Shown here one piece after another: positions 25,805-55,148 of a DNA stretch of 64,000 nt. The notes beneath the pieces were generated by a model, which worked only from the letters and a program-made list of their open reading frames with translations, made no database searches and was not told the DNA's origin. Both the position numbers and the translations under genes were made by a program. This DNA comes from Amphiscolops sp. MND2022 (taxonomy: Eukaryota): NCBI GenBank assembly GCA_964187785.1, contig OZ076411.1:34720001-34784000 (forward strand), read 5' to 3'. Within the stretch, counting starts at the first letter, position 1; each line of letters opens with the position of its first letter.

Positions 25805-25937
25805 TTACAGGAAACGGCATGTATCTTAATGGGACTACTCTGACGACTATAATGACAGAATAAACACGTGACAACAAAACAAAAAAGGTATACAGATAGA
25901 TTCACAACTAAAAAACAGAATGTACAATAATATACAT

Positions 25938-28900
25938 TTAGTCTTTAGAGCTGCCTTCCTTTAACTCTTCAACGGCTTTTGAAATCTCAGAGGAAGATAA
26001 ATTGCCGAAGAAAGCCAGTTTCTGAGCTTTTCCAGACCCATTAAGGACACTGCAGCCTACAGTTGACGAGACTGACGAACACTGTGAAGGTATAGTGACG
26101 GCTTTGACAGGAGTAGGCTTGAGGCCTTTTTTTGTGGGTGGGAATCCCACACTACCCTAACAGATGCCGAAAAGGATACTGAGGGTGCTTTTCCGGCAAT
26201 TACTTCGCAGATTGTTTGAGGCCTCTACGAGAGGGGTAACTCTTCATGGAAACATGCGGTATAATTTTTTCTCCCGATCGTGCTCGAAAAAAAATCATTA
26301 GACCCTTCTGGAAAGTGGAACATCCAAAAGAATCAACGTGCGTCCAAGGATCACCAGCAAACTGACCGGAATTAAATTGTCCATTCAAGTCACGAATGTT
26401 ACTGATGGAAGTCTCGGAAGTACAATAGGCGACAGACTGCGAACAGTTTGTTAAAATAGATTCGGCAGGCAGGAGCATATCTTCAAGGCAACACTTGGGC
26501 TTGGAAGTATCTACTTCGTGGAACTTGATAGCTGGAAGATCAACCCCTCTCTCCGTCAAGCAAAAACAGCTAAGTCGGATTAAGTAAAATAAATTCTTAC
26601 GACTACGTAAGGCGGGGAGAACAATAAGGAAATTGACCACATCCTTCAGCTGCCCAAGCTGGTCCTTAAGTTGAGGGAAATTGAAACGGAAGTAATCAAC
26701 AAATTCCATGTACTCGTCGCGGTAATCAGACTCTGAGGAACGTTGCACCCATCCTCGCAAGCAAAAGGATTAAAATAAAGCCCCAAAGCAGAAAGTAACT
26801 TGTTTTATGGCCAAAGAAGCCAACACATGGGGGTCAAAACAAGCAAGCCCATGGACAATGTTAGCGGTAAGGTGGACATCCCGTAAAACCGTCTCAAGCA
26901 GAAAGACAAAGTAACCTCTGGCTTTTGCCGCGAGATTGTCTCTTTCAGTGGCCTGTAATGAATCAAATTCATCAGCGCTGATATTTGGGTCGCTGTGAGA
27001 CTAGCGAACTCTGACCTTACAAGCAACATCCACGTCAGTTGTCAGCTTCAATCAGTTTAGGAAATCCCGGCCGGAGAGCAGTCTCAGATCATCAGGACTC
27101 AAATATAATAGTCCAGTCCAGTTAGTGTCATCGGGGATGCATTTGGGGAGACCTGCGCGAGAACAGAGCTTCCGCAAGAATCGACCAAATTGTCCGAAAG
27201 TGAAAAAGGAAGCATCGAGCTGCCCAGACAGACTACGTTCAAAGCACTTGTTATCTAAACAACGCACTTATGAGGGAATATACTATGACATTAAGAATGA
27301 TCAGAAGGGCCATACTCACAATCGCGGATGATGAGGCCAAAGATCTCTAATTTGACAGGGAAGTATTCGTCCATCAGGACCATCCACTCCAGACTCTGTG
27401 GCTATAAAGAAAACCAAGACTGAGTCTCCGGATTTTGAACCCAATCGGAACTTAGGGAACTACAGTGTCCTTGCTCATAAACAATATGTCAACTCCAACT
27501 TAGACCTTAAAACTGTGGCCTTAGTGTCCGATTTTAGTTGAGAGAGGGGCAACAAGTAAATAGCCAATAACTTACTCTGTTACGGACTACCTGTCCAGCT
27601 TGGGAAGGCGCCTCGCGCGTCATGAAATTGCGAATATTTGCCCATTGCGCGACCATCTCTTCACAAAGACCAGGATTACTGTGTAAATCCAGGTCACACT
27701 CAGTGATGGCCTAGAAAACCCATAGTTTTTGCCAATACGTAGCTCTGAAAGGCCCCTCACCCACCTACCCTATCAAAAACTCAATCAAATTACTATCAAG
27801 AGAATGGAAAGGAAAGGATATTAACTTTTGACAGGTTGGGGCAGTTCAACATCCAAGTTTCGGTCAAGACTGCTGCTAAGGAACAGAGTTGGATACTTCA
27901 GCTGGGAAAAGAAGTCGAACTTTCCAAAAAAGCTGTCAAATTTCTGATGCATGAGACGTGGCAACGATAGGACCTCAAATCTGAAGGGGTATTGGATGGA
28001 ATGTTTAAATAAGTTACTCTGGTCAAGAGTCTGTAATACGGCCGAGGAACAACCGGACACGCTCACAAGGTTAAGCCCTGCGGGGATGAAAAACAATAGA
28101 CGGGAAATTGAACCAAAGACGTTCCCAGGATACGCTGAAGCAAAAGGATATCTTCATAACTCGACTCGTTGAATGACGTCTTCTCCCCAGAACCGGACGG
28201 CCATGTAGCAAAACTCTTTCCGACTAGTGAACTCCAGTGAGTAACTTCCTTCAGTGGTGATTAGCCCAGCGAGATCTTCAGTACAACGAAGGAAGATGTG
28301 GTGGAAGATTTTCTAAAACGAGACTTATTTTGAGAAAACTATTTAGTCAAGGAGCCCTACCCGACCAAGTAGGTAAAGCTATACTTACAGTGAGGTTATC
28401 GGATCTCCAATCGAAAACAGAAAAGAATCCCTGATGGCTAGAAAAGTCGCCAAATCGAGTCCATAAATTCCTGAGTAGGGATAAGTCTCCTCCATGCGGG
28501 ACGAAGGTACCGATCAAAGAAATTTGGGTGGTCATGTGCATTCGTCTGGATGCCACCAACGTGGCCACATAGTCGTCGTAGAAAGGGAATTTTCCCCAAT
28601 GTCCACGAGTGGAGCATCCATGAACAAAAGTTTCTCTTTCTCTAGCTGTAAAGGTGTCAGGACGTACCCATCCTTGCCACAGACTTGGTGGGTCACTTTG
28701 CCCGTAGTGGAACCCACTTCACTGAGATGTTCGTGTACCTCCACCTTTGATCTCGCCGCAAATGTCCCTGAGTTTTATAGTGCCGCAGTATTTCGCGGGC
28801 CCCTTTGGAGTAGATAGATATGTTTGTCTTACATATCTGACAGTAAAATGTGTAGCGGTTAAGCAGAGGATCGAGTGGTCCGGAGACGAAAGTTCTTGTC

Positions 28901-30068
28901 CATTGGAAGCCCTTAAAGTAAGAATCTTTCATAACCTTACCGGGTTTACAGAGCATTTTCCTTCGTTTGCAAGGAGGACTTGATTCAGCTGTGACTGGAG
29001 TCTGCGCCTGAGTGAGGGAAGCCAACGGACGGTAGTCTCCACTGCTGTAGATACTGCCGGAAATTGGAGTTAAGGCCCTAGTTGGGCTCCTATCACTTGG
29101 GACCATGTTCCATGTCTTGGAGGTAGAAACATTGGGTAAGAAACCTTCAGAGCCAGTTTCGATGTTACATATATCTTCATCAGTGTCGATGGCACCTTTG
29201 TGTAACCATCACTGTTGGTCCCCGAACATTCTCCTCCAGAGCTGGATTCATATCTTGGGCCGGGCGTAGCAGATCTCCGTGGAATGTTGCGAAATGGGCG
29301 TTTATTCAATGGAATTCCTTCAGTTACTTTTACCAGCAATGACTTCAACATGTGGAATGATGACAGTACCGAATCATCAGCTATGGTCCTCAAGATTGCA
29401 TGGACCTGACTTTCACTGAAGGCAACAGTTGCGTGACAACCAGGCAGATCGACTTGAACGTTCGTTGTGAAAAATTTGCGAATTACGTCTCTCCCAGTAG
29501 GCGAAAGTTGTCTCCCAGTAGAAAATACCTTGGTTCGGTAGAAGGCCTGCTCTGCGTCACTGTTCCCAGAAGAACGTTGGAGTTCTTCGTCAAAACCCGG
29601 AAATATGTCAGGGTCAAGGGTGAAGGTGCCTGGTTTGGCGGTGGGCGAATCAACTTCAGAACTATCGTACAGCTCGCCGGGGTCGCTAGTATCAGAGTAT
29701 AATGCTCACTGATCGGGGATCTCTGAATGGGTTTCTTCAGCACCCGGATCGGTCGTGGTCTGCGGAGGCACCACAGTAACCATTAAGGGATCCGACTCAG
29801 AACTCTTGACAGTTTCATGAAGACTTTCCAATGGTACCGGATCGAGTAGGGTAGCTTGGGAGGACGGGAACTGGGAGACTGTCCGCTCAATAAAAGTGAT
29901 GACGCTCTCATCAGTGGAACAGCCGAAATTGGACGCCTGAGATTCTGGCCGGACTTCCTTATCCAACTCAATTACTTCTTGAAGCACATCTCGGGGTTCT
30001 TCTTGTGTCTCATTATCTGGGACGATCACTGAATTGGTGGATTCTGGCAAATTCTCCTCGTTGGACAT
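25938..30068 (-). pseudogene. E1 antisense accessory gene: acidic N-terminus + CCHH zinc finger + hAT-transposase-like body (disrupted; coding region apparently intronless)
   Basis: MSNEENLPES... continues in frame past a lone TGA (29706-29708). Then FYCQICKTNISIYSKGAREILRHYKTQGH, GGDLSLLRNLWTRF, YMAVRFWGED, VSVSGCSS, GLACFDP and DPWTHV, all collinear with the E2 antisense protein. Confidence 0.8.
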
Positions 30069-31266
30069 ATCTAAACGGAAGGAGAAAAATTTTACCGGGT
30101 GACTTCCTGAGTATAAATCCACGAGACCTCTTTACAAATAATCTAGAAGTGAAACATAAACATACGGCAAAAGCCAACGCTACTTTGAAAATGGACAGGA
30201 AGCAATTGGACAGGAAGCAACAAAGAAGCCCGAGTTGAGTATTATCCAGAAGGAGTAGTTGATGTGAAGACTAATGGCTTTAGTCACTGTACAATGCTGG
30301 TTCAGGGAAGAAGTGAGCGAAGTCGCTGAAAAAATTTCCAGCTGGATAGGGGAAAGCAGTCCTCTGTCCTTGTATGACCAAGAGTTGCGGGTGATAAAAT
30401 GCTGGAAATTTGGCAGTAAGGAAAGTAAAACGCAAAGAAGACTAGAACGACTATACGACTAACTAGAGACTAGAAAGTACAAAATGATGAAAGAACTGAT
30501 TAATGTAACGATTGATGATTTGGAGAATTGAAAAACGATTATGAAAGCAGAGTTGGAGATCGTGGCAAACTGGATTTGATGTCAAATATTAACACAATTA
30601 TGGGTATTATTTTGAGGATGGAATCTGCCAGGGAAATCCACAGAGATATCTTTCGAAAGTCTTGTTTTATAATGGACTTATTAATTTTTACAATTATCAA
30701 ATTATCCCATTTATTCCCTTATTTGGATTATTGTTATTTCTTCCGCCATTTTGAAATGCGGACAGCGAAGACGATTCCTATTGGCTATCGCGGCGATGAG
30801 CCGTGCGTGGCCTTAAATCCTGACTAAGACCTCTTGAAAAATTCAAGTGGATATCAAGAGCTGATAAACACTTAAAGGTATCATTGATGGCTCCTAGCCG
30901 CATTAGGTAAACGATTGAAGTGATGGCGTAAACAGAGCGGCTCATTGGAATCATCAAATGATGTTTGGAAGAATTTATCAATACGAATGATTACCGGGAA
31001 AAGCAAGACCCCGGGAAAGGAATCACGAGTCTTGAAGTAAATCTCAAATGAAATCAGGTAAAGAAGTTATCATTCTCTCTCTTAAAGCCTACAAGTACAG
31101 TTGGTCTTACAACTAAAATTCATAAAGTTGATTTCAATCTGATACAAAATTGCAAACAAACTAATAAAAACGCGATAAATGGCTGATAGATACCCGCAAG
31201 ATTTTTTTGGCGCTGCCCCCTTGAAGAATAGAGCTGGTCTAATTATCCAGCAATGAAGAGGAGGAA

Positions 31267-32017
31267 ATGGACGCACTTAGTACAACGTCCGTGATGGACC
31301 TCCAACTATCGTCAGAAGATGAAGAATACGACGACGAACTCATGATGATAACTCAGTGCGTCAAAATGCAATTATCGGCGCCTATACCAATCCCCGGGCC
31401 TTCTACACCAAAAACGGACTGTTCTTACGTATTGGACAAGCCGTCAAAATACAGAAAGCCTAACTTGGCACACAGCCCGAGTCCCGTCCCAGATCAGTCT
31501 TTCTTCTCTTTGGGAAGGGGAAAAGGACCGATAAGGCGCGATGACCGCGTACGAAATAACCATTCGATAAAATTATGCAATGGATTAACCCCATTGGTAG
31601 ATAGAGACTCCAATGTCGCCTCCTCTAGAAGAAAGAGGACCTAGCAGCTTTTTCTTCCCTAACCATGCCGAACATCTGGAGACACAACAATCCTTGGACG
31701 GGATTACAAATCACTTCCAAGGAATGGGGCTCAGCGGATCGGGGCCATTAGTGATTTGCTTGGTTTGTGTGATATGCAGGAAGTCGACGATGCAAATACA
31801 GCAAGAAGCAGTGTCCGATTACCTGAATAAGACTGCTATTCACGGGGAAACGGCCCTAAAAGTCGAAGCGCGTAAGAGAGCTTTCATAGAAGGGATGCAT
31901 GTTGGCACAATTTTGCTCCTCCCAGGGGGAGTGTCGCAGGTGGCCGCCTGCGATTTTAACTTCTACACTTTCGACCACAGCTTACCTACTGCCCTACCCG
32001 AAACATTGCCTATATGA
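31267..32017 (+). pseudogene. E1 sense accessory ORF3 (frameshifted near 31630, 3' end cut by a deletion)
   Basis: ORFs 31267-31644 and 31613-32017. N-terminal MDLQLSSED...PSTPK resembles E2 ORF3 (LDLNLSSD...QSTPK) and sits in the same position. Confidence 0.55.
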
Positions 32018-33075
32018 CTGCAATCGTTGATAAATTTGAAAACATTACCTGTTTTTAATATTTGCAACACATGTAAAACATTTTATGTATTTGTATTTGT
32101 AGTGCGGTTAATATTTCGCAGCAAGCTATACTGACAGGCAGAAAGGAAACGAGTTCAAATGCTTGCCTGTTCAGTATAGCTAGCATAGCTGCATACGGCG
32201 AATTAGCCAATCAGAGCTTTTAGCCACACTTATAGTTGCTGTAATACCTTCATTTACTAATCAGTAGGGACCATCACGACCACTCAACCTAAGCGGTCTA
32301 ATTACATTTCGTTGATATGCTGTGCTATTTTTGAATGAACAGAACAAAGCGAGTACGGCCTTAATGACTAAATAGCCTTACTCGTCCAAACGTTACTAGT
32401 GCTATTATAGAGAAATAAGGCCCAATACGGCCAGCAGACTAAATGAGTACTCCCATTCATCAGAACCAATATGAAATCGGCGCTACCTTTGATGATGTGA
32501 TGATGAAATATATGTTATGAACTGCAGAGTATTCAATCTCATGTAAATATTAATATGTAGTGTTGCTTAAATAGTTAAATAGTCCCTTGCGGCCACAACC
32601 CGTACAGGGTCTGCATGAATTGTTACGCAAGTAAAACTGTTTCATACATGAATTTATGCTTGTAAACTATTTGACCTATACGCTGTGTGTCTTGTCGGAC
32701 GCTTTCATCTAGCCGCCCGAACAAGTCTACAATGACGTCATGTTGCTATTTATAGTCACGATTGTATCTATTTTTATCTTTTGTGCTATTTTTAGTAGCA
32801 TGACTGCCAAAATCATAGATGTCATGCTAACTTGGGTATAAATATGCCCAAGTTGGGCCTCAAAAATATTTATACTAGTGATACGGTTATTGTTCAGTTG
32901 CTCTTATACAAGTTGTACAAGATTTGCTGTGAAACCTAGTTCATATGGTCTCCGGGAACAATTTAATTATTTTCTCCTGGGTAAATATTTTCAATGCCCT
33001 CCACAATGAGACAAAAGGCCAAGGCCAGGAAGTCAAGAGAATTAGATATGCTTTCTGATTACGGTAAAATGGACG
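32009..33075 (+). repeat. E1 3' LTR copy B (truncated at both ends)
   Basis: Joins ORF3 at a CCTATA microhomology (equivalent to LTR position ~17936) and stops in the gag start (...AAAATGGACG). Confidence 0.85.
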
Positions 33076-34700
33076 GATTCAATATGCTGTCTTGTATCAA
33101 ATTCTACTTTGTTTTGTTAAAACAATTACTCTGCAAACTTCAATTCAAAATGGATAAATCCAAAAATCTTTTCATCAAGAGAAGCTAGAAAAGAAGAATG
33201 TCCTTCAAAAAAGCAACAAAAATAATCAGAAATGTACAGAACAACGACCCTAACAGAAGTCGTAACACCTATACAACTGCAATCGTTGATAAATTTGAAA
33301 ACATTACCTATTTTCAATATTTGCAACACGTGTAAAACAATTTCTGTACTTGTATTTGTAGTGCGGTTTATATTTCACAGCAAGCTATACTGACAGGCAG
33401 AAAGGAAACGAGCTCAAATGATTGCCTGTTCAGTATAGCTAGCATAGCCGCATACGGCGAATAAGCCAATCAGAGCTTTTAGCTACACTTATAGTTGCTG
33501 TAATACATTCATTTACTAATCGGAAGAGACCGCCACGACCACTCGACATAAGCGGTCTAATTACGTTTCGTTGATATACTGTGCTATTATTGAATGACCA
33601 GAACAAAGCGAATACGGCCTTAATGACTAAATACTTGTCCAAACGTTACTATTGCTATTATAGAGACCGATACGGCCAGCAGACTAAATGAGTACTCCCA
33701 TTCATCAGAACCAATATGAAATCGATGCTACCTTTGATGATATGATAACGAAATATATGTTATGAATTGCAGAGTATTCAATCTCATGTAAATATTAATA
33801 TGTAGTGTTGCTTAAATAGTTAAATAGTCCCTTGCGGTCACAACCCGTACAGGGTCGCATGAATTGTTACGCAAGTAAAACTGTTTCATACATGAATTTA
33901 AGCTTGTAAACTATTTGACCTATACGCGGTGGGTCCTTGTCGGGCGCTTTGATCTAGCCGCCCGCACAAGTCTACAATGGGTATAAATATGCCCAAGTTG
34001 GCCCTCAAAATTAATTACCCTAGTGATACGGTTTTTGTTCAATTGCTCTTATACAAGTTGTACAAGACTTGCTGTGAAACCTAGTTCATATGGTCTCCGG
34101 GAACAATTTAATTATTTTCTCCTGGTTAAGTATTTTCAATGCCCTCCACAATGAGACAAAAGGCTAAGGCCAGGAAGTCAAGATAATTAGATATGCTTTC
34201 TGATTACGGTAAAATGGACGTAATGTTAGGTGGAGGAAATTCCAGCTTTGTAGAAAGAGAATTGGATAGTCTTATTAAAGTCCCTGAAAGGCAACAGGAC
34301 TTTCAGTCCTTTCCAAACAGAGAAAACTCATCTGAAGAGAATGAGATTAGGGATATCGATAGTAGAAATGAACCTGTCAGAGAAGGTAGACTAATGGAGT
34401 CGATCAACATGTTATCTAAAGAAATGAATGCCAGAATGTTTCGTGAGATCGAAATGATGATAGACTTAATGCATACTCAAATTAGCAGAGCCATTGGCTC
34501 TGCCATGAGTGAGAGAATCATTCCAGAGATACAAAACATGGTGGAAAGCTTGCCTTTGAACCAGCATGGCGTTGAGCCGTATACGTCCAAAAATGAGGAT
34601 GGAACTAGAAATGTATGGAAGAACGCAAATACAAAATTAACAAAAAAGGACTCAAGGTCCGCTTGTGATCTAAGGGACCACACGGACAATGTTCCTTACA
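33076..34700 (+). repeat. E1 3' LTR copy C, ending ...CCTTACA
   Basis: Restarts at GATTCAATATGC (equivalent to 17745), carries an internal deletion of roughly 140 bp relative to B, and ends at the same CA as the 5' LTR. Confidence 0.85.
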
Positions 34701-39676: not shown

Positions 39677-41563
39677 TGTCGCGACCCCAGGGGTGCCACG
39701 GAAATCATATAACGAGAGGGACGCCTGAAGAAGGAAGTGAGGAAACCGACCAGGTCAGGTCAGAATCACCATGAACAAATCTAAAATAGAAGACCAATAA
39801 ACAAACCATTTGATACTATTTATATAACACGCAAAAGTACATTTTCTTCTTCTGTGCCGTACCTAAAATAATAGATATGTTAATAATTATATATTAATAG
39901 TGAATCAAGTATTTGTTTAGCCAACGCACCGACAGAAATTAATTCGGTCAACGCGTCGACTGGAGACTCGCCTCAGCGGCAGCAGTAAATTTCATTAATC
40001 AACCTGTATCAGCCAATCAGATTTGAGCGCAGTTAATACAAATTGAAGAACTGAGGCAACGTCCCAGGCAGCTTACCAGTCCGCTGAAGCTGGGACGCTC
40101 GCTCAGTCACTCTGTCTGATCAATCAATTACAAATAATCGATGCTAATTTTAGATAAATGTTTCGCAGCTTAAAATAAGCTAAATACCAAAAGAACTTCC
40201 AATGAGTAATAATCGACGATGCTTGTAGTATTTTTAACGTGTTCGGTCCACTTTGTATTTGAGCCAACTTCCCAGGCAAAGCGCTAACTTTCTTTATTAA
40301 AACAAGAGCCTGGACAGATGACCGAACGTATTTAATTAATACATATCTTATAGCTAACCGAATAACAATGTTGCCCCTGTTAGACGTGATACTTGATAAT
40401 GACATAGTAAAACAACCCCCAGTGCTATTATTCAACCCCCACATGCAGTGTTTTGTTAATGTATAGTTGAGTCAACCGCCCGGTCAACCGGCCAGGCCAC
40501 TCTAAATGAAATTCGTTAACTGGCGTTCACCCAGGATTTTATCGTTAGCTTCAATTTAAAGTGCTAATTAACGGCCATAATCATCTGATTTAGAAGAAAT
40601 CAGTGCGTTAATTTATTTATTTGATGTTTCCCTTAAATTACTAGCAGTAAAATTTGGGATTGTTCGATGATAATTTCACTTTCCTTTCCCGCTTCAGTAG
40701 CTAGGTTCATGAATTTTCAGTGCCAACTTCGGTTCGGCGTCCTGAATTGGCGGGGAATGAAGAAGAATTAACGCGGAATTGGGACTCGGCAGGAAGTTAT
40801 TCCCACTTTTCCTTTGAAGTGAAATGAAACTGAAAGCCGAGTCCCGAGGAAGCGGACCTAATTTGGACTTCATTGCCTCGGATGGACGCCGAGCTGAACA
40901 AGGTGTGAATTCACGCGCGGGATTTATCCCGCGTGTTCAGCGAAAAGTATTTATACCTGAAGCGGGTTAAGGAAAGACTCAGAATATATTTTGATTTTTG
41001 CAGAACGCTCACCTTCAAAGTTGAATATTTTTCGTAACTTTCGCTTATTTTGATAATTGTTGCCTTCGAAATTGTTTGTTATTCTCCTTTCCAGTTCCAT
41101 AGTCAAGATTTTGATATTGTTTTATTGACTAACTGATATCGTTTGGGAATAGTTTGAGGCTTATAACTGCCAATAATACTTAATTCAGCTGTTTCCTAAC
41201 CCTTACATTTTCTCGGAGAAATGCCTGAAAAAACCCAGAAAAGAAAGCTACGGAGTGACCAGAGCACTAGTCAGATAGATGAAGAAATAGCTAGTTCAAC
41301 TAACGACGAAAACGTCTTGTTATCGGATAGAGATTTTGAAGATATCTCTAGTAAAGTTGAAAATAGGCTTTCTAAGCGACTTAGGGATACCGAAGTGAAT
41401 CAACGTGAAATATTAAAGCTGATCGAAAACTTGTCATCCAAAGTCGACAACTTAACCAATGTAAATCCGGGACAGAGTTCCTTAACTTTCGAGACTGGAA
41501 TTAGTGAAATCCCTAACGACGAATTAGAAGGAGTAGAACCAGCAAGGAGCGTTAACTCCAACA
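39677..41563 (+). repeat. E2 5' LTR (1887 bp), encoding the first 114 codons of gag
   Basis: Matches 53261-55148 with roughly 35 differences by eye (~98%); gag ATG at 41221. Confidence 0.97.
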
Positions 41564-41576
41564 TGGTGACAGGAGT
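41564..41576 (+). promoter_or_regulatory. E2 primer-binding site TGGTGACAGGAGT (tRNA-Leu-like), inside the gag frame
   Basis: Directly follows the LTR-terminal CA; 12/13 match to the Leu-type PBS TGGTGTCAGGAGT. tRNA identity is inferred. Confidence 0.8.
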
Positions 41577-42610
41577 CGTTAACGAACCAATGACCAGCAA
41601 CAACACCCACGCCCGATCTTCAAGCCTGCCACCTCCAAACCAGAGGCACTCAGACGAGATTATCGACAAACTACTAGAATCTCTATACGCAACGCATAAA
41701 CAAACACCAAATCTTCCTCGCTTACCAAAAACCCTAGCAACAACAATGCCAACGTTTGACGGTAAGACAGAAAAATTCGAGCTATTTGAAGACTTGTTTC
41801 AAACTAGCCTGAAAGTCCACCCACAAATAACAGAACAAGAGAAAATACACTATTTTCACTCACTACTGCGAGGAGACGCCTTGCAAACTTTTCGGAATAT
41901 GACCGAAACAACCAAAACCAACATAAACGACATCATAGCTGGTTTCAGACGAAGATACGTCAAAACACAATCAGTCGCCACCGCTAGATGCAAGTGGGAG
42001 AACCTCACATTCGACCCGGCAAACCAAACCTTTCAAGATTTCTTAGAAACCTACCAGAAACTAGCCCAAGAAGCATACGCGGACGACGCACCTAGATTTA
42101 TAGAGACCTCGTTCTACGCAAAAATGCCCACACAACTTAAAAGGGTATTGAACTTGAAACAGCTCGCCTTGAAACAGCATCATACGAAACAATGGTGCAA
42201 CATCTGGAACGAGAAATGGAGCTCAACGGATTAGCCAACCCAGAATCCGCGACATTCACAGGCATACACAACGTGGAACCAACTAATAACCTCAACCAGG
42301 AAAGACCCCCAAAAACCGCGAGTAGCTGCTTCGGTGGTGGACATCAGGGCCACCTCCTCCGCAACTGTAGGAAGACGAACAGAGATTAACGATTCCAAAA
42401 AACCCTCAACACAACCAACACCAACCCCTGCGAAACTTGTGGTAAACTAAGCCACGAAACCAAGGATTGCTACTCGGGTGCAAACTGGGCAAACCGCCCC
42501 ACATGGTGGAAGACACCTAAACCAATATGCTCGAACAGCATACCTCTACCCCAATCAACCACACCCGAGGTTAGGCAACAACCCCAAGCAAACCAACAAC
42601 CTACCCAGCC

Positions 42611-42617
42611 AAAAAAC
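42611..42617 (+). promoter_or_regulatory. Putative -1 ribosomal frameshift heptamer A AAA AAC (gag-pol)
   Basis: Correctly phased in the gag frame one sense codon before the gag stop; the -1 frame is open into pol; E1 has the same heptamer at 20570-20576. Confidence 0.75.
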
Positions 42618-45600
42618 TACTAAAGCCACGTCTTCGCTTCGGGGACTACACTGATTTCAGATACTATACCATCTCTGAACCCCCGAAGGACTTTGATAAA
42701 GAATTGTATATGGAATGCTCTGGAGAACCATCAATCGACTGGCAGCGACGATGGCTCATCCGACGTCTCATTAAATTTAATAAGAACACCCTCGACAAAC
42801 TCCCCTACCCCGACTGGTACACCCAAAACCCTACCCACTACAACTCCACCCGAAGACCACTACTCCCCAGCTCCACACCCGAAACCTACATCTACGACCC
42901 AGACTTTCAATGTGACCCGTGCTACAACGAAACTCTATACCACACCGAAAAACTCGTTTTCAGACAATCCATCAACGTACCGTTTCACGAATTCATAGCC
43001 AGAACCAACATGGATATCTCGACAACCCCAAAGAGGAAAGACGACACAAGTCATACTCCCAAACCACAGGCTGAAGAAGAACACGACAAAGAAATCGCAG
43101 TGATCGTAACGCCACCAATGACTTCCCTTAAGTCGATACTCAAAAACTAGAACCAAACTCCACCGGTTGACTATGAGTCACCCAAGAAACTCCCAGCCAC
43201 CTCCAACGAAATACGGGCAGCTATGACGTCGTCTCCCTCTAGCCCAGAGAGCCCTGAACTCCGATACTCCACGCCCGAACCCCCGGGAAATAAAAAGAAA
43301 GCCGGGGACCTTACACAGGCAAACGAACCTGTAATAAACCCCCGGACCCGCCGTGTTAAACGAAAACTAACCAGTGAGTTTAATCCAACAAAGAACGACA
43401 ATCCTAAAACACACAACTCACCAAGAGAAGTCCAAACCCCCAGCAACGAGACACACAAGCCAGACCAAGATGAGGATTGGATTCATACCAACAAGCAACT
43501 AAACGAAATCGCAATCACAGATCCAGAAACGAGCAAAAAATGCATACCAATCTTCTCAGCCATTCACCTAAAAAAGAAACGGAAGATGCTCTTCGCCCCA
43601 ATGGATTTCAACAACCTATCAGTAGACGCACTTGTTGATTCAGGGGCGCTTGTCAACTGTCTACCAGAAAGCGAACTCCAGAAGATTAAATCAGTCAGCC
43701 CAGACAACATACTCAAAGAAATGGACCCACCCGCCTTCAAGCTGCAGGTCGCAAACAGCGACATAGAAACACCAACGAAAACCGTCCAACTCCAATTCGA
43801 ATTAGGAGATTGGACGTTTAAAGAGACGTTCATTGTAGCTACAAAGATGACAGGTCCTATCCTCGGACTAACATTCCTGAAAAACAACAGCGCCATTCTA
43901 GACGTGAGCCAGGCCCTGCTGCATTTCCCACACCTGACCTACGCAATCACTGCAGAGGACAACGAAACAGTTTCAAGACACCACAAAGTGACCATCAAAA
44001 ACCAACTCACCATCATGCCCGACCAATGCATAACAATTGAAGCTGGCATTAACCTGCGTACCATAACAAACACCACAGGAACTATCCACCCCACCGAACA
44101 ATACTCAGGAGAACACCAACTAGTAGTCGCCAGCTCTCTATCCACGGCCACAAACTCAAAAATTGAAACACGGGTCACCAACACATCACCGAACCCTTTC
44201 ACTCTCAAAAAGAACGCAAACGTCGCAGAATTCACCATACTGTCACCCCAAGAGGCTAAACAGCTCCATCCACTCAATTCGGCAGCCCTCAAGGTCTTAG
44301 CAGAAGACAATACGGAACAGGCTCTCGAATATGTCAATGAACTTCTGAAATCGTCGGAAAAACCCCAAACAACTCAGAACTTCTGGTTTCCCACGCCAGA
44401 CAACCCTGGAGATCCAGCTTCACACACCCCTATCCAAAGCAGAATCCTCAGAGAGATAGAAGAACTTTAAAACATCCAGAAACTCAACCCACACAACAGC
44501 CCCGAAGATAGAGCAGCCTTCTTAGCCAACTTCAAGTGGACCAATTCTCAACTCAGCGACGCAGACAAGAAAGACATAGAAGAGATCCTCGTCGAATACA
44601 ACGACGTCTTTGCAAGGCACCGTCTCGGCATTGGAATCAACAATGACTTCAAAATAAAACTCTCACCTAAATCAGAACAACTGCGTACACACAAAGTTTA
44701 CCATGCCCAGTCAATCTGAAGGAGGATTTGACAGTTGAGCTGGCACTGATGCACTACTACGGCATCATTACAACACTCCCCTTCAGCAAGTACGCAAGCC
44801 CAATTATTGCGCAAAGAAAACCTAACGGACGTCTTCGCCTCCTTGTTGACCTGAGGAAGATCAACAACCTAATCTCCGACGACTATATAAACAACAACCA
44901 CCCAGTGAGCACCCTCTCCGACGCCGCGCAACACCTAGCCGGAAAGAAACTGTTCTGCAAGCTTGACTGCTCTCAAGCCTACCATGTCCTGCAAATGGCA
45001 GACCAGAAATCAGTGGAACTCCTGGCGTTCAACTTTGCCAGTCGGACATTCGCCTACCTGCGACTCGCACAAGGGCTCAGCAGATCCCTCTCTTCCTTCT
45101 CGAGCTTTATGCGGGAGTACCTCAATCGAGTCATAAAAGCTGACAAAAGTGCCCAGTACGTTGACGACATCGGGATAGCAACCCATACCGCCGAGGAGCT
45201 GAAGAACAACCTGCGTGAGGTCTTCCAGTGCATTAGGGAAGCAGGTCTGCGTTTGACAATGGCTAAATGTCAGTTCGGTGCCAAGGAAGTCGAATTCCTT
45301 GGACGAACAGTCTCACCCGAAGGCATCGCCCCACAACCTCACAAGATCAAAAACTACCTACAAAAACTGTCGTTACCGAAAACCAAAAGGGCCTACAGAG
45401 ATACATCGGCTTCGTTAACTATCATCGAAACTACATACCTCGCCTTTCTGAAAAATCGCACCATTCCACGAGCTAGTCAAGGCAGACAAGCCAATCAAGA
45501 TCACAAACGAGATCATGCAGACATTCGAAAACATCAACAAAGCCCTAGACAATGCCTGCGGACTATGGCTGAAACAACCATTACCCAACAAACAATATGT

Positions 45601-47983
45601 CCTCATGACCGACGCGAACTTCAAGAATGCCGGCTAGGCCCTCATGATTGAAGAAAACGCAGATGAAAAACTGACCTCGGTCAAAAAGACATACGCCCCA
45701 GTCGCGTTTGGATCCAAAACATTATCGCCGTCACAAATCAAAATGTCAATATATGCCAAAGAATTTCTGGCTATATATTTTGCCTTCATGGAATACAGCC
45801 ACATTTTGTGGGGATCGACCAAACCAGTCATCGTTCTAACAGACAACAAATCTGTTACACGTTTCTTCCAAACCAAAATAATACCACCAGCGTTGTGGAA
45901 TGCCTGCGATTTCGTCCTACAGTTTAATTTCACAATCGCCCACGTTCCAGGAAGGATGAACACTGCCGCAGACTTCCTCTCACGACTCGACCTGGATCCA
46001 AAAGAGAAAGTCCAACTACTCATAAGAGACGACATTCAAACTACCCCAATAGAGGTACACATTCAGGCCTCCAACGTAGCCGAAGAAGAACAATTCTACT
46101 TCCTCCCCGAAGACGACATCGAAACAGAAGAGCAAATTTGGGAGAGGAAGCAGAGAGCCCGCAAAAAGATACAGGAGAACGACACCCCACAAACGCCAGG
46201 AGAAGAAACAAACAACAACACAACCCACGCTGAAGAAACCACTGTCGTATTTCGAACGGAAATCACCAGACGCACACAAAACTCTGAAGTGAACGAAAAA
46301 CCCCTCCCCCGTGACATGAGACACCAACAGGACCGAGACAAAGTCCTCCGAAATTATAAATTACGCCTACTCAAAGAACCATACGATAAACACCTAATAG
46401 CTACAGACCACACAGCACTCCAATACACGGCCCAAGAATCCCGGATCATACTCAAAGACGGACTGCTATACCGGCAGTATTTCGGGGAGACCGGGGCAGT
46501 CAAATACTTGCAGGTCTTACTACCAGAACAACTAGTCGACTCATTTATAGAGGCCCACCACGGATCGCACGACAAACATCCTGGGATAACAAAGGTGATA
46601 CAACAGTGTAGAGAAAAATACTAATACCCAGGTCTTGCAGCAAAAATAGCCAAACACATCAATCAATGCATGAAATGCATGCAAACAAAACGGACGGACA
46701 ACCGTCTCCTCACCCCACCAATGATTGATACCTCCAAACTAGCATTGGGACCAGAAGACGCCCCAGAAATGGACATCGTCCCGTTCGATGAACCATCGAA
46801 TGGATTCACAGCGATAGTCACAGCCATGGACATTTTCTCACGCTACCTGTTCACATACTGCGTCAACAGGATAGACGCAAAGACAATCGCAAGAGTACTA
46901 GTAGACATTATGACACGACATGCCTACCTGCCTACAACAATAATAACCGATAAATGAACCCAATTCATGTCAGAAGTAGTAGCAGACACAACACGCGTAC
47001 TGGGCATTCAACTACGCCACGCCACAACAAAACACGCCCAAACGATAGACATCCTGGAACGCTGTCACGCATCCCTTAAAGAAGCTCTGAAAATCTCAAC
47101 AGGGGAAAGACGAACGATGTGGCACCAGTTCGTACCAACAGCCACACTAAACTATAACACAACCTATCATTCGGAACTCGGGTGCGAACCCAGTCGGGTG
47201 TTTCATGGTAGAATACCATACAATGTTCTCGACCTCAAATTTGGCCTTAAACAGAACCGACAACCAAATCCAACAACAGACATAGGCGAAGAAGTCGTCC
47301 AAAAAACCCGAATGATACACGAATCAGTGAGCAAACACCTCCTACACTCATACATACGGTACAAACAGTACTATGACAAAACAGCAGCAGCTCACCCATT
47401 AGCAGCAAACGACTACTGCTATGCACTACACCCCCAGGCAAACAACCAGGGATCGAAATTACCTTTTCGGGAGTTCTTATGGACAGGACCATTCGTAATA
47501 GTCAAAACTCTCCCCAACAATAACTACCTAATTCGCAAATTACAAACAAACAAAACACAAATCCTACACAGGATCCGACTGAAACCATGCCCTATCAAAG
47601 GCCGCCTGCCACACATCCAGGTTCAAACAAAGGATTTCCAACCAGATAACGAAGTCGAAATCTTACACGATGATTTATACGCCCTAGCATGGCAGTCTGG
47701 TTTTGAACACTTCGTGATGACACCCGAACACAATACGCATAGCGAACCTACTATCATATCTACAGACACCGAAGACAACCTACAAAATGGTACCCAGGAC
47801 GCTGACCCAGACGCCCTTCCAGAAAACCATCCCGATCAACCGGAAACCCAACCCGAACCCGGCCCTAACCCAGAACCTAGTTCCCCCCGGAAAGGAAAAT
47901 ACCACCTTCGTAGCAACCCCCCTTCAAATTGGAAAAGAGATTACGCTTACTACGACCCAGTGGTAATTAGCTCAAACGAATAA
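42617..47983 (+). pseudogene. pol: E2 pol: unassigned N-terminal domain, protease, dUTPase-like spacer, RT, RNase H, integrase with GPF tail (several lesions)
   Basis: LVDSGALVN; LVDLRKINN and YVDDIGIA; LMTDA and YAKEFLAI; HHGSHDKHPG...CMKC, MDIFSRY, IITDK, LERCHASLK, WTGPFVI. Confidence 0.95.
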
Positions 47984-48402
47984 ACTCTCAAAACGAATTC
48001 ATGAAATATTTGTACGGTACATACTCTACTTACGCAACTGATAGCCCACGACTGACTCAAATCACTACTAACTCAACTACGAACTCAAAAGAAAAACGAT
48101 ACAAAGGAGAAAAGAGTGTATTGAGGATGCCCCAGTTTAATTTTCTCGTTTTATATACATAGAACTGCCAACACCCCCAGAGGAGGTTTTTTTTATTCTC
48201 GAGAATTCAACTGCATTTTTGCCTGGCTGAAGTTTACCATAAATATCAACAAACCCAGTGGGATCAAGAATACAAATAATACATCAAGTCGTATAATAAA
48301 AACCAATACAAAGTTTACAATTCATGCACAACAACGACAAAGACTATACTAAAGTTTGCAAATAACTACAGCAAATGAAGTTCATCATCGGACCCTGGAC
48401 CA

Positions 48403-51400
48403 TTACTCGCCAGACGCGCCTTTGCCCGACTTTCCAGAACTCGCCCGGCTTGAGCTACGCGAATGAGATGCACCTTGCTGTTTCCTTTTCTTCTCTTTCA
48501 ACCTCTGAGCCACATCACTAGATCCACTAACAGACGCAACAGCCTTAGCAAGTTGACCGGCTCCACCCGAAACTGGGGCAGAAGCAGAAGCACCCTGGTG
48601 GACAGAAGACACAACACCAGACCCGGATTCGACGTCTCGGGCAGACGGCAGTTTACTAGTAGGAGAAGTAACAGAGAAAGCACATAGCCCTGCCCGTCGA
48701 CGCCACTCGGCAACTTGCCCCATGTAGTAACCATTGAAACTGTCACGAAGGTCGCGATACATATCCTGCCGAGCAAGCACATACAGAGAACGCCAAGGAG
48801 CAAAGGTAACATCGGACATGAAAACATGTCCGGATGGTAAATTAGCCTTCAATTCGTCAAGGCAGTCCTTTGTCAGCAGTTCCCCAGAGACGAAACCACT
48901 GTCGGAAATATACGATTGTACTGCCCGGACCGAAGACAACAGGACCTTCTCAGGAATTGCAGCCCCACTGAGCGAAATCTCCACATCTGGATACTGAACT
49001 ACCCGTGGCACAACCCCAACTGACACTATGCCGACCACCTTCGACAAATGCAGACGACACTCCAACAGTCCACTCTGCCACAGAAAACAAAAACTGTCCT
49101 TGATGGTCGAGATCACTTGCCGGTTACGTCGTCGCAAATCAACCAACAACGATTTGAACTCGTTAGCAGAACCCTCGGCCTCCACAGAAGACAACCGCCC
49201 ACAAGTCTGCAGACAAGATACCAAGTCACGAAACAGCGAAACGGTATATGCCTCTTCCCCCATAAGAAGCATGTCCGGGGAAAAACAACTGAGGCTGGAA
49301 CACAATCGAGAAGTTGCGTAGGCAGACGTATTCAGAACTTTCAAAAATTTCATCAAAAACCATGGCATTCCCGCAGAAAACCCCGCTTGACAGCATCACT
49401 GCAACCATCCAATGCCTTGATAACGATAGGCTCACTTCGCAAACAATCGATGTAGGACACATTAGCCCATGTTGACAATGGCCGCCCAACATACTCACTC
49501 CACTCTTCAATAGCAGGCAACTCAGACAACTTCTTCACCTTCCCCAGAAGACTCCAGTAGAAGAAACAGAACTCGGCATAATTCCGACAACTATAGTCGG
49601 TGACCGATTTGTCAGATTGTGTCTCAAAGTTTGACTGAAAACATGACACCAACACATGCAACAAGCTCAGACGGGGCAAAATGTAGGTATCTGACACAAT
49701 CACTTGACCCAAGTCGACAGGAGTCCTTCCACGGAGAGTAAGTGTACTATCACTTTCCTTGAAGAACAGTTTAACATCCTCCCAATGGGCTACAAGCTCT
49801 TCCAGCACGACACCAAAAGAAGCAAAAGGAGTATCCCGGCGTCGGACACACTGGCGAAACTCTACAAGCCCTAATAACCAGGGCTGATGAACGGCTTTAT
49901 CCAAGCGCAATAGCAAGAATTCCAGAACTGCAAAGGGATCCAAACAGTGGGCACCGACCATACCCGCGTCCCGAACATGATCCTTGAAGACTGACGACGA
50001 ATACTCCAGCAAAGAGAGAGGCGACGACCGACCATGTGACCGACACCACTCACTGAACACGTTGAACAAAGTCGAAGAGCAGCCGAGCAAGGCAACAGGG
50101 GCCTGCCCCTCAGCCAGGATAGATAAAACCCGCGACAAGCAACGGATTTCCGCATCACAAATGCCAGTACTGTAAGGCTCCCACAAGAGGCACACCTCTC
50201 GAACACGCCCATCAACTTGACACCGAACAATACAATTGACTCCATTGAACTCCTCGCGAAACAACACACTGAATACAGAATCCTTACACCAAGACTGCAC
50301 TCCGCGAAGAATACGAGGATATAACGTCTGACTGACAATGACAAGGCACTCAGTTTTACTCCACGTGGCCTGCGCATAGGTCTACTCGACTGGGATGGTA
50401 GCACGGAATTGGTTCCAAAGACGCCGCAGGAAACTATGGGAACCACCACTACGGAGAAGCTCAAATAGCCCCGCCACCAACGTTGCAGACTGCACATTCG
50501 ACACAACACCGACCAGAGCATCCACTTCGTCTTCTCTGAAAGGATTTTTCTTCCCCAAAGTGACAGGAGGAGTTTCTTCAATCTCGGCACGCAATTCCGC
50601 TGAAATAGTAGCCACTTCCACAGCATCAAACTGAGGCGTGTAAAACACATCCTCATGATCTAGTCGATAACGACGATCTTTTAAGTAATGGCTCTTACGG
50701 CTGAAATGACGCCAGATCTCAGGAGCACCACGACTCAGGAATTTGATGTCCTTTTGACAAATGGCACAATTGAAGCCATTCGGGCTCTTATCAGTCCTCT
50801 GACTCACAAATAATTGAGGGATAGCATGCACAGCCATTTCCTTGCGCAACACGTGCCGCTCCGTCTGCCTCCTTTTCCTGCGTTCATACTTGACAAACAG
50901 TTTACGTTTTGTCTTTTCTTCCTCATCCAACTGACTTCCTCGTCCGGGTAACTGAATGCCTTTTGACTTCAACAGCCGAACAACTTCGTCCATACCTAAA
51001 CCACACAAACAAATGACAACCCAAGTCTTACGCAGGTGATTAACGACACCAAATAAAACACACGACCGCCCACCAAAATCACCAAACTAAACTAAACATA
51101 ATTCGACCGACCACAAAAGAAGAGGAAACTTCACTTACGACGCGACAGAGATTTTTCTTCCAACAGTGACTGAGATCGTTCCAGTCGCACTGCCGCTTGA
51201 CCATAAGCCAGAATTTGACTCGACGACAGACACACTGCACCGGTAGGCACCTCCTTTAAGCCAGCTAAACAACACAGAACAGTGAAAATAACTAGCCACA
51301 GCAAACCCTACTGTACATGAAGCTTATGGACAAACGACGACAACAATGCAATCCAAAAAAGCACAACTTTACCTTTAGCCCATTCATTATGAAGAACAGG

Positions 51401-52435
51401 CTTCTCCAATCCTTCAGCAGGACGACAATGCTGCGTGCGCTCATGCCGCAAATGTGAACCACTAGGTGCCATACTAGCAAGTTGAAACGGGGAAACATCA
51501 GACGACCCGCCGGGCAAACCACCCACATCAGTGAAAACGTCTCCCTCCTGAGGTAAAGGAGTCTGTGCTGAAAACAACACGCAGTAAACTACCAAGTTCT
51601 GGAACACAACAATGAAACCAAGAACCGAACTACCTACCTTCATCGTCTCCACAAAGGACGCCAGAGAAACCAAGTCCAGGACTGTCATCAGAGCTCAACA
51701 CATTAGTGCGCACCCGCTTTGTTGAGCCACCCAGAATAGCTGAGAGCAGACGTTTACTGCGACGTGAACCGACATCGCCAGCAGCAGAAGAAAGGGTGAA
51801 ATCCTCATCACTCGGATCATCTGAGAGCCCTACGGAAACAGAGGTAGATGAAATGACGCGTCTGCATACTAGCATCAAAACTGTTAACTGGCCATTAACA
51901 AATAGCTAAGCAACCCACCTGATTGTTCCATTAGGTAATCCAGTCCATTGCGAGCATTACTGCCAGAAGAATGGACAGACCCAGCATCGTCGTCACCACG
52001 AGCAGAACTGTCTTCAGGAGGAACATCACCGGAATTCCGATCAATCTCGTCACCAGAACTGTCGTCTGTATCAACCTCGCCAAAACCGGCAACTCTCCGA
52101 GACACACGAACCTCAGCCTCTGACGGGACATTTGAATCAAAAGGGACCACATCGTTCAGGTCATCTTCCAACTGAACTTCTCTTCCCTCTTCCACAACGA
52201 CCAACCGACCGTCAGGAGGCGACTCCACAACAGCACATATTTCATCGACTGCTTTACTCACAGCACTCTGTTCCGCTGCCCCAGGGACACCAACAATTTG
52301 ACGCGCATCAGTTCCAACACTCGCATCTCCTGTATCGACTCGCGCCCCACCCAGAGACTCACCTTCACTCTCCAAAATTCCAATCTGCTGCGACTGAGCA
52401 AAACGGACAGCATCCTCATCAGTAGAATCTGCCAT
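48403..52435 (-). pseudogene. E2 antisense five-exon accessory gene (~1220 aa): acidic N-terminus + CCHH zinc finger + hAT-transposase-like body; one nonsense codon and one frameshift
   Basis: Predicted exons (minus strand) 52435-51919, 51868-51638, 51567-51373, 51264-51139 and 50995-48403. All four introns are GT-AG and phase 1, and they join the exons in frame. TAG at 50384-50382; 1-nt loss in a T-run near 49355; minus-strand AATAAA at 48197-48192. Confidence 0.8.
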
Positions 52436-52719
52436 TTTGTCTGTTCAAAGCAATCTAAAAAATTAAAACACCAAGATAAACCAATAGAAGACGTGGCGTA
52501 AAACCAACGCTAATATTATTATCATAATCTACTAATATGACGTAGTGGAAGTCATTCAGTCTGCCAGCTGAAAACTTCCTCAATCACGCAAGCGGCGTGA
52601 ACAATTACAAAGAACAGAATTATCATTCAATTTTTCAGCTATTCCCAAGACGGTCGCTCAGCATTCATCGGCAATCTACAACCGTATTACTTTTACCGAT
52701 TACTTTCATCAGTAATACA

Positions 52720-53358
52720 ATGGCATCTCTTGATCTCAACTTATCAAGCGATAGTTTCATTCTGGAACGCGACCAAGCTGCTTATTTGAACAACCCTGCG
52801 GCGCAATCAACACCTAAGACACGACCTAACCCCCATTCGGCAGAACAATCACCTATTATTCAGGATGTGTACGAAATTATAAATACAGGGGGAAAACACA
52901 TCGTGCTTTACCACGAAACAGCCCCAGCTTCAAAACTAGCAACGGCACAAGAGGATACACTCCCGATCAGAAGGTTTACCAAAGTCAACCCGATTATACC
53001 AGATGACATATTTATGAGCCCACCGAGAAATTATGACAACATGAATAGCTGGCTATACAGTCCCAACGACGGCACAATGAGCCCAATATCTGAAACCAGC
53101 TCAATTGGCTATTTCTCGGGAAGTGACTGGACAACTGACTCGTCCTGATTCTCCTATGATTCATTTATACAATCTGTGTTCCAACAACCAATCTCGTCGC
53201 CGTTTAGACCAGTTTCCCCACTCCCTCCTATACCGGACGCCCCTCAAGAAAGCCGGGGACTGTCGCGACCCCAGGGGTGCCACGGAAATCATATAACGAG
53301 AGGGACGCCTGAAGAAGGAAGTGAGGAAACCGACCAGGTCAGGTCAGAATCACCATGA
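52720..53358 (+). pseudogene. E2 sense accessory ORF3 (S/P/T-rich, ~212 codons), crossing the PPT into the 3' LTR; one in-frame TGA
   Basis: ORF 52720-53148 and ORF 53176-53358 share one frame, separated only by TGA 53146-53148; the last ~32 codons lie inside the LTR. Confidence 0.55.
53246..53260 (+). promoter_or_regulatory. E2 polypurine tract (imperfect)
   Basis: AAGAAAGCCGGGGAC directly before the 3' LTR TGT. Confidence 0.7.
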
Positions 53359-55148
53359 ACAAATCTAAAATAGAAGACCAATAAACAAACCATTTGATAC
53401 TATATAAATAACACGCAAAAGTACATTTTCTTCTTCTGTGCCGTACCTAAAATAATAGATATGTAAATAGGTATATATTAATAGTGAATGCAGTATTTGT
53501 TTAGCCAACGCACCGACAGAAATTAATTCGGTCAACGCGTCGACTGGAGACTCGCCTCAGCGGCAGCAGTAAATTTCATTAATCAACCTGTACCAGCCAA
53601 TCAGATTTGAGCGCAGTTAATACAAATTGAAGAACTGAGGCAACGTCCCAGGCAGCTTACCAGTCCGCTGAAGCTGGGACGCTCGCTCAGTCACTCTATC
53701 TGATCAATCAATTACAAATAATCGATGCTAATTTTAGATAAATGTTTCGCAGCTTAAAAGAAGCTAAATACCAAAAGAACTTCCAATGAGTAATAATCGA
53801 CGATGCTTGTAGTATTTTTAACGTGTTCGATCCGCCTTGTATTTGAGTCAACTTCCCAGGCAAAGCGCTAACTTTCTTTAATAAAACAAGAGCCTGGACA
53901 GATGACCGAACGTATTTAATTAATACATATCTTATAGCTAACCGAATAACAATGTTGCCCCTGTTAGACGTGATACTTGATAATGACATAGTAAAACAAC
54001 CCCCAGTGCTATTATTCAACCCCCACATGCAGTGTTTTGTTAATGTATAGTTGAGTCAACCGCCCGGTCAACCGGCCAGGCCACTCTGAATGAAATTCGT
54101 TACCTGGCGTTCACCCAGGATTTTATCGTTAGCTTCAATTTAAAGTGCTAATTAACGGCCATAATCATCTGATTTAGAAGAAATCAGTGCTGTTAATTTA
54201 TTTATTTGATGTTTCCCTTAAATTACTAGCAGTAAAATTTGGGATTGTTCGATGATAATTTCACTTTCCTTTCCCGCTTCAGTAGCTAGGTTCATGAATT
54301 TTCAGTGCCAACTTCGGTTCGGCGTCCTGAATTGGCGGGGAATGAAGAAGAAGTAACGCGGAATTGGGACTCGGCAGGAAGTGATTCCCACTTTTCCTTT
54401 GAAGTTAGTTGAAACTGAAAGCCGAGTCCCGAGGAAGCGGACCTAATTTGGACTTCCTTGCCTCGGATGGACGCCGAGCTGAACAAGGTGTGAATTCACG
54501 CGCGGGATTTATCCCGCGTGTCTAACGAAAAGTATTTATACCTGAAGCGGGTTAAGGAAAGACTCAGAATATTTTTTGATTTTTGCAGAACGCTAACCTT
54601 CAAGGTTGAATATTTTTCGTAACTTTCGCTTATTTTGATAATTGTTGCCTTCGAAATTGTTTGTTATTCTCCATCCCAGTTCCATAGTCAAGATTTGGAT
54701 ATTGTTTTATTGACTAACTGATATCGTTTGGGAATAGTTTGAGGCTTATAACTGCCAATAATACTTAATTCAGCGGTTTCCTAACCCTTACATTTTCTCG
54801 GAGAAATGCCTGAAAAAACACAGAAAAGAAAGCTACGGAGTGACCAGAGCACTAGTCAGATAGATGAAGAAATAGCTAGTTCAACTAACGACGAAAACGT
54901 CTTGTTATCGGATAGAGATTTTGAAGATATCTCTAGTAAAGTTGAAAATAGGCTTTCTAAGCGACTTAGGGATACCGAAGTGAATCAACGTGAAATATTA
55001 AAGCTGATCGAAAATTTGTCATCCAAAGTCGACAACTTAACCAATGTAAATCCGGGACAGAGTTCCTTAACTTTCGAGACTGGAATTAGTGAAATCCCTA
55101 ACGACGAATTAGAAGGAGTAGAACCAGCAAGGAGCGTTAACTCCAACA
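53261..55148 (+). repeat. E2 3' LTR (1888 bp)
   Basis: TGTCGCGACC...CTCCAACA followed by TSD GTAAC. Confidence 0.97.

Follow-up and report, generated by a model that had tools for sequence, protein, structure and literature searches.

An antisense hAT transposase-like gene with a predicted dead active site in Gypsy-type LTR retrotransposons of Amphiscolops sp. MND2022

The window analysed here, a 64,000-nucleotide stretch of the Amphiscolops sp. MND2022 assembly GCA_964187785.1 (contig OZ076411.1, positions 34,720,001 to 34,784,000), contains two Gypsy-type LTR retrotransposons, E1 and E2, and each of them carries an antisense gene (Table 1; all positions are those of the window). E2 shows the features of a Ty3/Gypsy carrier, including LTRs (39677-41563 and 53261-55148, 98.1% identical, with TG...CA ends), a TGG primer site, a purine tract, a 5-bp target duplication (GTAAC), and the gene order gag-PR-RT-RH-IN, in which Pfam recognized Retrotrans_gag, gag-asp_proteas, RVT_1, RT_RNaseH, and Integrase_p58_C. 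The gag frame of E2 starts within the 5' LTR (41200-41563). E1 is decayed, with a truncated 5' LTR (17745-19464) and an antisense gene interrupted at several points; its 3' LTR (31932-34700) contains an internal tandem duplication of ~1.26 kb.

In both elements the antisense gene lies between pol and the 3' LTR on the minus strand, and that of E2 is convergent to the integrase gene. For E2, four upstream phase-1 GT-AG introns were predicted, delimiting exons 1-4 at 52435-51919, 51868-51638, 51567-51373, and 51264-51139, and the ATG and splice sites are conserved in 7-10 of 10 related copies. The encoded N-terminus is acidic and of low complexity (exon 1 has 40 acidic residues of 172), while exon 5 encodes a BED-like zinc finger, dimerisation-like helices, an RNase H-like core, a helical insertion domain, and a basic tail. 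In E2 a single stop (50382-50384) and a single frameshift near 49,360 interrupt this last exon. The antisense regions of E1 and E2 are homologous, as the E1 pieces match a profile of the E2 family, with a core identity of about 19%. The interval separating the 3' LTR of E2 from antisense exon 1 also holds a small sense-strand ORF (52546-53148), which shows protein-level conservation among copies of the group named E2A below. The E1-type counterpart (L031:214-1107 and like loci) is about 298 aa long and has a hydrophobic-acidic motif resembling a SUMO-interaction motif, and Pfam assigned no family to this small ORF.

Table 1 Features of the two elements and placement of the catalytic positions in the window
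Feature	Positions	Strand	Basis or remark
Element E2, full-length Gypsy-type LTR retrotransposon	39677..55148	+	LTRs, target duplication, primer site
E2 gag-protease-RT-RNase H-integrase, split over several frames	41200..47983	+	Pfam
E2 antisense gene, predicted exons 1-4	51139..52435	-	no stops in the four exons
E2 antisense gene, predicted exon 5	48403..50995	-	frames, folded homologue, structure searches
Zinc finger C-x2-C-x16-H-x5-H	50688..50768	-	family alignment
Arg at first catalytic Asp position, end of strand 1	50256..50258	-	register uncertain by ~2 residues
Gly at second catalytic Asp position, after strand 4	50082..50084	-	topology placement
Tyr-x-x-Ser at CxxH position	49992..50003	-	topology placement and alignment
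Pro-Phe at RW position	49824..49829	-	topology placement and alignment
PDVEISLSG, region of catalytic Glu, predicted extended, not helical	48964..48990	-	model and alignment
Element E1, decayed Gypsy-type	about 17745..34700	+	LTR comparison, Pfam
E1 antisense gene, hAT-homologous part, broken and intron-separated pieces	26203..29208	-	
E1 Thr at first-Asp position	28226..28228	-	
E1 Gly at second-Asp position	28052..28054	-	

When the E2 piece was searched against the 1.07-Gb genome from which the window comes, 119 matches were obtained from the 118 scored of 3,806 candidates, many of them open frames near 870 aa. With an E1 piece, 150 of 4,912 candidates were scored; neither candidate total is a copy number. 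Additional genome searches recovered further sub-lineages. From the top matches, 56 loci of 9.9 kb were selected and fetched, a sample biased to open frames, and in 55 of them a Gypsy integrase lies convergently on the opposite strand. These loci fall into four groups, namely E1 type, E2A, E2B, and a third type, of which only E1 type and E2B form supported clades in the tree of the antisense (hereafter accessory) gene. A GT-AG intron after the dimerisation-like region is common to E1-type and third-type copies and is lacking in the E2 types. Of the database relatives, at least one, P0188, lacks a near counterpart in this genome (best 29%).

A natural open copy, P0002 (863 aa, 98% identical to the E2 piece), was folded together with 35 relatives, giving a model with a pLDDT of 75.7 in which an RNase H-like core is split by an all-helical insertion domain. 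Foldseek returned nine matches at E<=0.001, all of them Hermes (best E 5e-5), and VIA-align placed residues 204-702 of the model on Hermes 135-609 (Z 13.3, rmsd 5.6, 400 aligned). In a wide structure search of 48,161 chains, Hermes was the sole chain with Z>=8 (Z 12.6; next 6.3). hAT-family clusters were among the nearest named Atlas neighbours of the homologue P0006, for example a 62-member cluster with PF05699 on 76% (score 0.93). Sequence methods gave no match. Pfam found no hAT, BED, or TRP28 family in the window frames, the 35 relatives, and 12 further pieces, with both the C-terminal signature PF05699 and PF04195 (Transposase_28) absent from the antisense proteins; PDB sequence searches with single sequences and a profile found nothing, and hhalign of the accessory family against 13 host hAT frames was not significant (probability 0.1). 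The hAT assignment thus rests on predicted structure. The zinc finger has no zf-BED match in Pfam and lies outside the structurally aligned range. On the strength of the model and the three structure searches, the antisense gene is predicted to fold like a hAT transposase, RNase H-like core included.

Secondary-structure topology and the end points of alignments, rather than coordinates, were used to locate the catalytic positions. As a reference we used L077, an intact hAT transposase of the same genome, whose motifs were anchored by alignment on Hermes (catalytic triad D180, D248, and E572) and which was then folded. The numbering of Hermes H268 and W319, as well as the roles of the hAT CxxH and RW hairpin motifs, follow the available sections of PMC4763223. 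In the L077 model, strand 1 carries the first Asp as its sixth residue, and the second Asp follows strand 4 three residues ahead of a helix; CxxH stands at the start of the insertion, RW lies just ahead of two paired helices, and the Glu belongs to a helix flanked by two others. Every secondary-structure element of P0002 could be mapped one to one on L077, and by topology the corresponding residues are R246, G304, Y331/S334, and P389/F390; the Glu helix is not formed, and an extended segment (661-681), ~8 residues shorter, is predicted instead (pLDDT about 85). In the structural alignment rows the five-stranded core ends at 326-330 and the insertion starts at 328. Two other registers were considered. 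When the profiles were aligned by force with secondary structure included (probability 0.00-0.07), both Asp positions changed register, with the first at 248 and the GC falling on CxxH; this solution agrees on F390, but it was discarded, since it leaves out strand 4 together with its helix, contrary to the structural rows. A register with the Asp one residue ahead of the Gly was set aside on account of the helix start and a conserved Leu at +5.

The earlier note had read FSVLFREE (E2) and YSLEFTSR (E1) at the first Asp, and VALLGCSS (E2) and VSVSGCSS (E1) at the second; all four peptides were located on the minus strand, at 50250-50273, 28220-28243, 50073-50096, and 28043-28066, respectively. 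From them it had argued that the catalytic residues were lost in the same way in both elements. This applies to the second Asp, where both have Gly; the first was replaced by Arg in E2 and Thr in E1, which is not one shared substitution. Likewise, the GC of the shared GCSS is widely common, but GCPS is found in the E1 relatives L031, L034, and L035, and the match over all four letters is thus in part fortuitous. A pattern scan agreed that no ERxFS-type motif is present near either C-terminus, but a VEISLS look-alike occurs in E2.

Residues were then counted over 57 genome rows, window copies included. Asp occurs at the first position in none of them; the E2 types have Arg or Gln, the E1 type has Thr (14 rows) or Glu (2), and the third type has Glu in 7 of 10. 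At the second position, 50 rows carry Gly, 4 Asp, and 3 Asn. Cys and His are each found in 0/57 rows at the CxxH position, where the E1-type alignment is gappy, and R and W in 0/44 genome rows at the RW position. Database proteins gave similar figures (first Asp 0/56, second Asp 4/57). Nearest to the hAT pattern among the 57 rows is one third-type copy, L130:5934-6644, whose first position is Glu and whose second is Asp. A tree of the core exon was built from 55 rows, omitting those without an unbroken core piece and keeping the trait columns; with the root unknown, it gives four changes at the second position, three between Asp and non-Asp, and eight at the first position. Given that Gly occurs at the second position in each of the four sub-lineages, and that the rare Asp codons are one transition away from Gly, the Asp looks secondary. 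The simplest reading of these alignments is that catalysis was probably lost before E1 and E2 split, which is consistent with the order of events proposed earlier.

An intact triad at other positions, which would have contradicted that proposal, was also sought. Position 672, in the PDVEISLSG region, is acidic in 40 of 41 non-E1 rows and thus in three of the four groups, but is Lys or Arg in 17 of 17 E1-type rows. Position 247, adjoining the first Asp, is acidic in 19/21 E2A and 10/10 third-type rows, that is, in two groups only. Since no acidic column of the RNase H-like core is common to all four groups, no displaced triad was found. It is therefore very unlikely that the protein is still a nuclease acting through rearranged acidic residues: such an enzyme could draw on the acidic residue at 672, the Glu that two of the four groups carry close to the end of strand 1, and the second Asp of 4/57 rows, but these same four rows lack the first Asp, CxxH and RW are gone, and the model does not form the Glu helix. 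The active site is predicted to be dead, with DDE, CxxH, and RW all lost.

Compared with Hermes (PDB 4d1q, 8edg, 8sjd), the accessory protein has an N-terminal CCHH finger too, putatively of the BED type, and, in the prediction, a similar dimerisation-like region, RNase H-like core, helical insertion, and last helix. It differs in its low identity (about 10%) and in lacking DDE, CxxH, and RW, and its gene lies inside an LTR retrotransposon without terminal inverted repeats. Judged against active hATs in general, it falls short in DDE, CxxH/RW, ERxFS/PF05699, and terminal inverted repeats alike.

To describe selection on the family, dN/dS was estimated for 19 pairs of copies. Across the 18 pairs that gave an estimate for the dead core, values ranged from 0.03 to 0.20; for the zinc finger, 10 pairs could be estimated, at 0.00-0.07. 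No domain pair exceeded 0.24, and all values are rough because many synonymous distances are saturated. The four zinc ligands are conserved in 58, 56, 58, and 58 of 58 rows. These results bear on the possibility that a hAT transposon inserted in the element and is decaying neutrally. Its antisense orientation and introns would suit an inserted Pol II gene, and both window copies are broken; however, dN/dS values well below 1 refute neutral decay as the present state, many copies keep open frames near 870 aa, the gene holds the same position in 55/56 loci, and around it we found only short imperfect inverted pairs, none suggesting transposon ends. We consider this reading to have next to no chance of being correct, and an inserted hAT transposon may be the origin of the gene but is not its present state. 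By comparison, we are highly confident that a dead hAT-derived accessory gene is maintained under purifying selection, and on this point the earlier suggestion of a dead transposase accessory factor is supported.

Comparison of the loci further showed that the antisense gene reassorts independently of both pol and LTR type. Four loci (L097, L098, L101, and L104) have near-identical RT/integrase (pS 0.00-0.06) and saturated accessory genes (pS 0.63-0.84). L099 and L108 share 91-98% identity with E2 across pol, falling to about 60% within the antisense gene; the breakpoints lie near 48,000 and 52,500. Among 16 LTR loci compared, all E2A, three (L097, L106, L114) combine E2's gene with a different LTR U3 (45-63%), and two (L101, L110) combine E2's LTR (84-98% over most bins) with a different gene version. 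Each mosaic recurs in independent copies, so assembly error is unlikely. At the deep level, RT and accessory groups are broadly concordant, and the third type is closer to E1 by RT and closer to E2 by accessory identity.

A private integrase or U3 partner is improbable in view of such reassortment, which also bears directly on whether the accessory protein tethers the element integrase to preferred chromatin sites. The two genes are neighbours in 55 of 56 loci, a hAT body with a zinc finger is built to hold DNA, and the deep accessory groups broadly track those of RT; nevertheless, the same integrase is paired with accessory proteins only about 56-76% identical, similar accessory proteins occur with integrases at pN 0.16 (L101/L102), and the gene is predicted to lie on a separate antisense transcript outside Gag-Pol. 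Tethering is accordingly rated as quite improbable.

The exchange of many deeply diverged versions among near-identical pol backbones could also mean that the protein counteracts or decoys a host silencing factor through protein-protein contact, with DNA binding being secondary and cassette diversity reflecting an arms race. The accessory core diverges much more rapidly than RT (E1 and E2 types are 19% identical in the former and 80% in the latter), and plant accessory TE proteins have many predicted host contacts (PMC13547354, in its accessible text). Against this stand the zinc finger, which is the most constrained part of the protein, and the absence of any domain pair with dN/dS >0.24. We regard such an antagonist as unlikely.

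Transposases act as multimers, and the genome does contain hAT transposases with intact motifs (L077, L078, L079, L080, and L081; frames of 597-697 aa). On these general grounds a dead relative might serve as a dominant-negative poison of host hAT transposons. In sequence, however, the accessory proteins could not be matched to the host hAT frames that were sampled (best E 0.04), which makes mixed oligomers or shared end-binding unlikely, and a clear benefit to the retroelement is lacking. There is little to recommend this reading, and we give it a very low probability.

Of the three roles raised in the earlier note, chromatin or DNA binding fits best, and integrase tethering and hAT poisoning are disfavoured. 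We moderately favour a trans-acting DNA- or chromatin-binding regulator that keeps the element family transcribed. A hAT transposase gene may have been captured once and inactivated before the sub-lineages diverged. Its product would be expressed from its own spliced antisense mRNA, and its introns could persist through retrotransposition, being located on the strand opposite to the genomic RNA. In the nucleus, the protein would bind DNA via the zinc finger at a site shared across LTR types, while the acidic N-terminus and the pseudo-catalytic body might recruit host factors. A candidate target is a 300-base LTR block (54250-54560 and its 5' LTR equivalent), conserved across 10 aligned LTRs; sites inside the cassette are also possible. 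The block recurs in LTR types that are otherwise unrelated, and it contains a GC-rich inverted repeat that immediately precedes a TATA-like motif. Transposases are described as activating transcription of cognate copies, with dead derivatives becoming factors, in the available part of bioRxiv 10.64898/2026.08.24.746577, and the BED finger of Kat1 is required for specific DNA binding (PMC4763223, sections available). The uncoupling of the gene from its LTR type counts against this regulator, since it is unlike a strictly cognate activator. Regarding the source of the gene, no catalytically intact donor hAT was found, and a genome search for a Buster/Tip-type donor with PF14291 and PF25431 gave no match, which does not prove absence. 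Only tentatively, and at somewhat less than even chance, do we propose the fuller account in which an entire DNA-transposon enzyme was domesticated by a retrotransposon lineage to serve as its trans-activator or anti-silencing factor, with old interchangeable alleles traded as an env-like cassette.

Several known systems resemble parts of this arrangement. ZBED proteins are derived from transposases and have lost the catalytic residues while retaining DNA binding. The same combination is reported for Spm TnpA, FAR1/FHY3, and MUSTANG in the accessible part of bioRxiv 10.64898/2026.08.24.746577, a text in which the whole words LTR, Gypsy, and retrotransposon do not occur. All of these serve the host or the same DNA transposon, whereas here the owner is a retrotransposon. 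In plant Retand (Tat) elements, antisense TRP28/Transposase_28 ORFs also lie between pol and the 3' LTR and are retained across a Gypsy lineage; in the available sections of PMC11963269, the ORF is proposed to be a DNA-binding regulator, and TRP28 is a short plant domain whose origin is left open. In contrast, the cargo of E1 and E2 is predicted to be a whole hAT fold and to be spliced, and it reassorts.

VANC of the VANDAL transposons is likewise an element-encoded accessory protein likely promoting its own family, and is sequence-specific for cognate elements and aimed at DNA methylation (PMC5735166 and PMC10398659, as far as their accessible text goes). It differs in fold and origin, being MAIN-like (available part of PMC13547354). 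The present gene, by comparison, is uncoupled from the LTR U3 type. It lies in a region without CpG depletion (CpG o/e 0.84-1.12), which makes a VANC-like effect on DNA methylation improbable. Retroelements that share modular extra genes are also known among bdelloid rotifer LTR elements with captured ORF3s, but according to the accessible sections of PMC5408684 these encode esterase, exonuclease, or env-like cargo with intact catalytic residues, and the word transposase does not occur in that text. Our literature search found no description of the arrangement reported here; most subscription papers, Repbase reports, and supplements fell outside its scope.

Dead transposases as host transcription factors or helpers of their own DNA transposons were already known, and plant Gypsy elements were known to carry additional antisense ORFs of obscure origin. 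The present family combines the two in an extra ORF with a recognisable source, a predicted full hAT fold, strong selection, and thousands of candidate copies. This analysis adds the residue-by-residue family counts, the correction of the supposed identical loss in E1 and E2, and the uncoupling from both pol and LTR. With a defined putative DNA-binding finger, a candidate LTR block, and natural swaps against pol and LTR, the function of antisense ORFs becomes directly testable, and the family offers a natural series for a transposase losing its chemistry while the scaffold is kept. If the domestication account is true, a class I element would be running on a class II pseudo-transposase.

Beyond E1 and E2, the window contains another RT-coding element (59069-62737) with a perfect 1,668-bp tandem duplication that either arose recently or stems from the assembly, frames for a LINE-type endonuclease and RT (37147-38988, minus strand), and a single-frame galactosyltransferase-family ORF of 470 aa (4987-6399, minus strand), probably a host gene.
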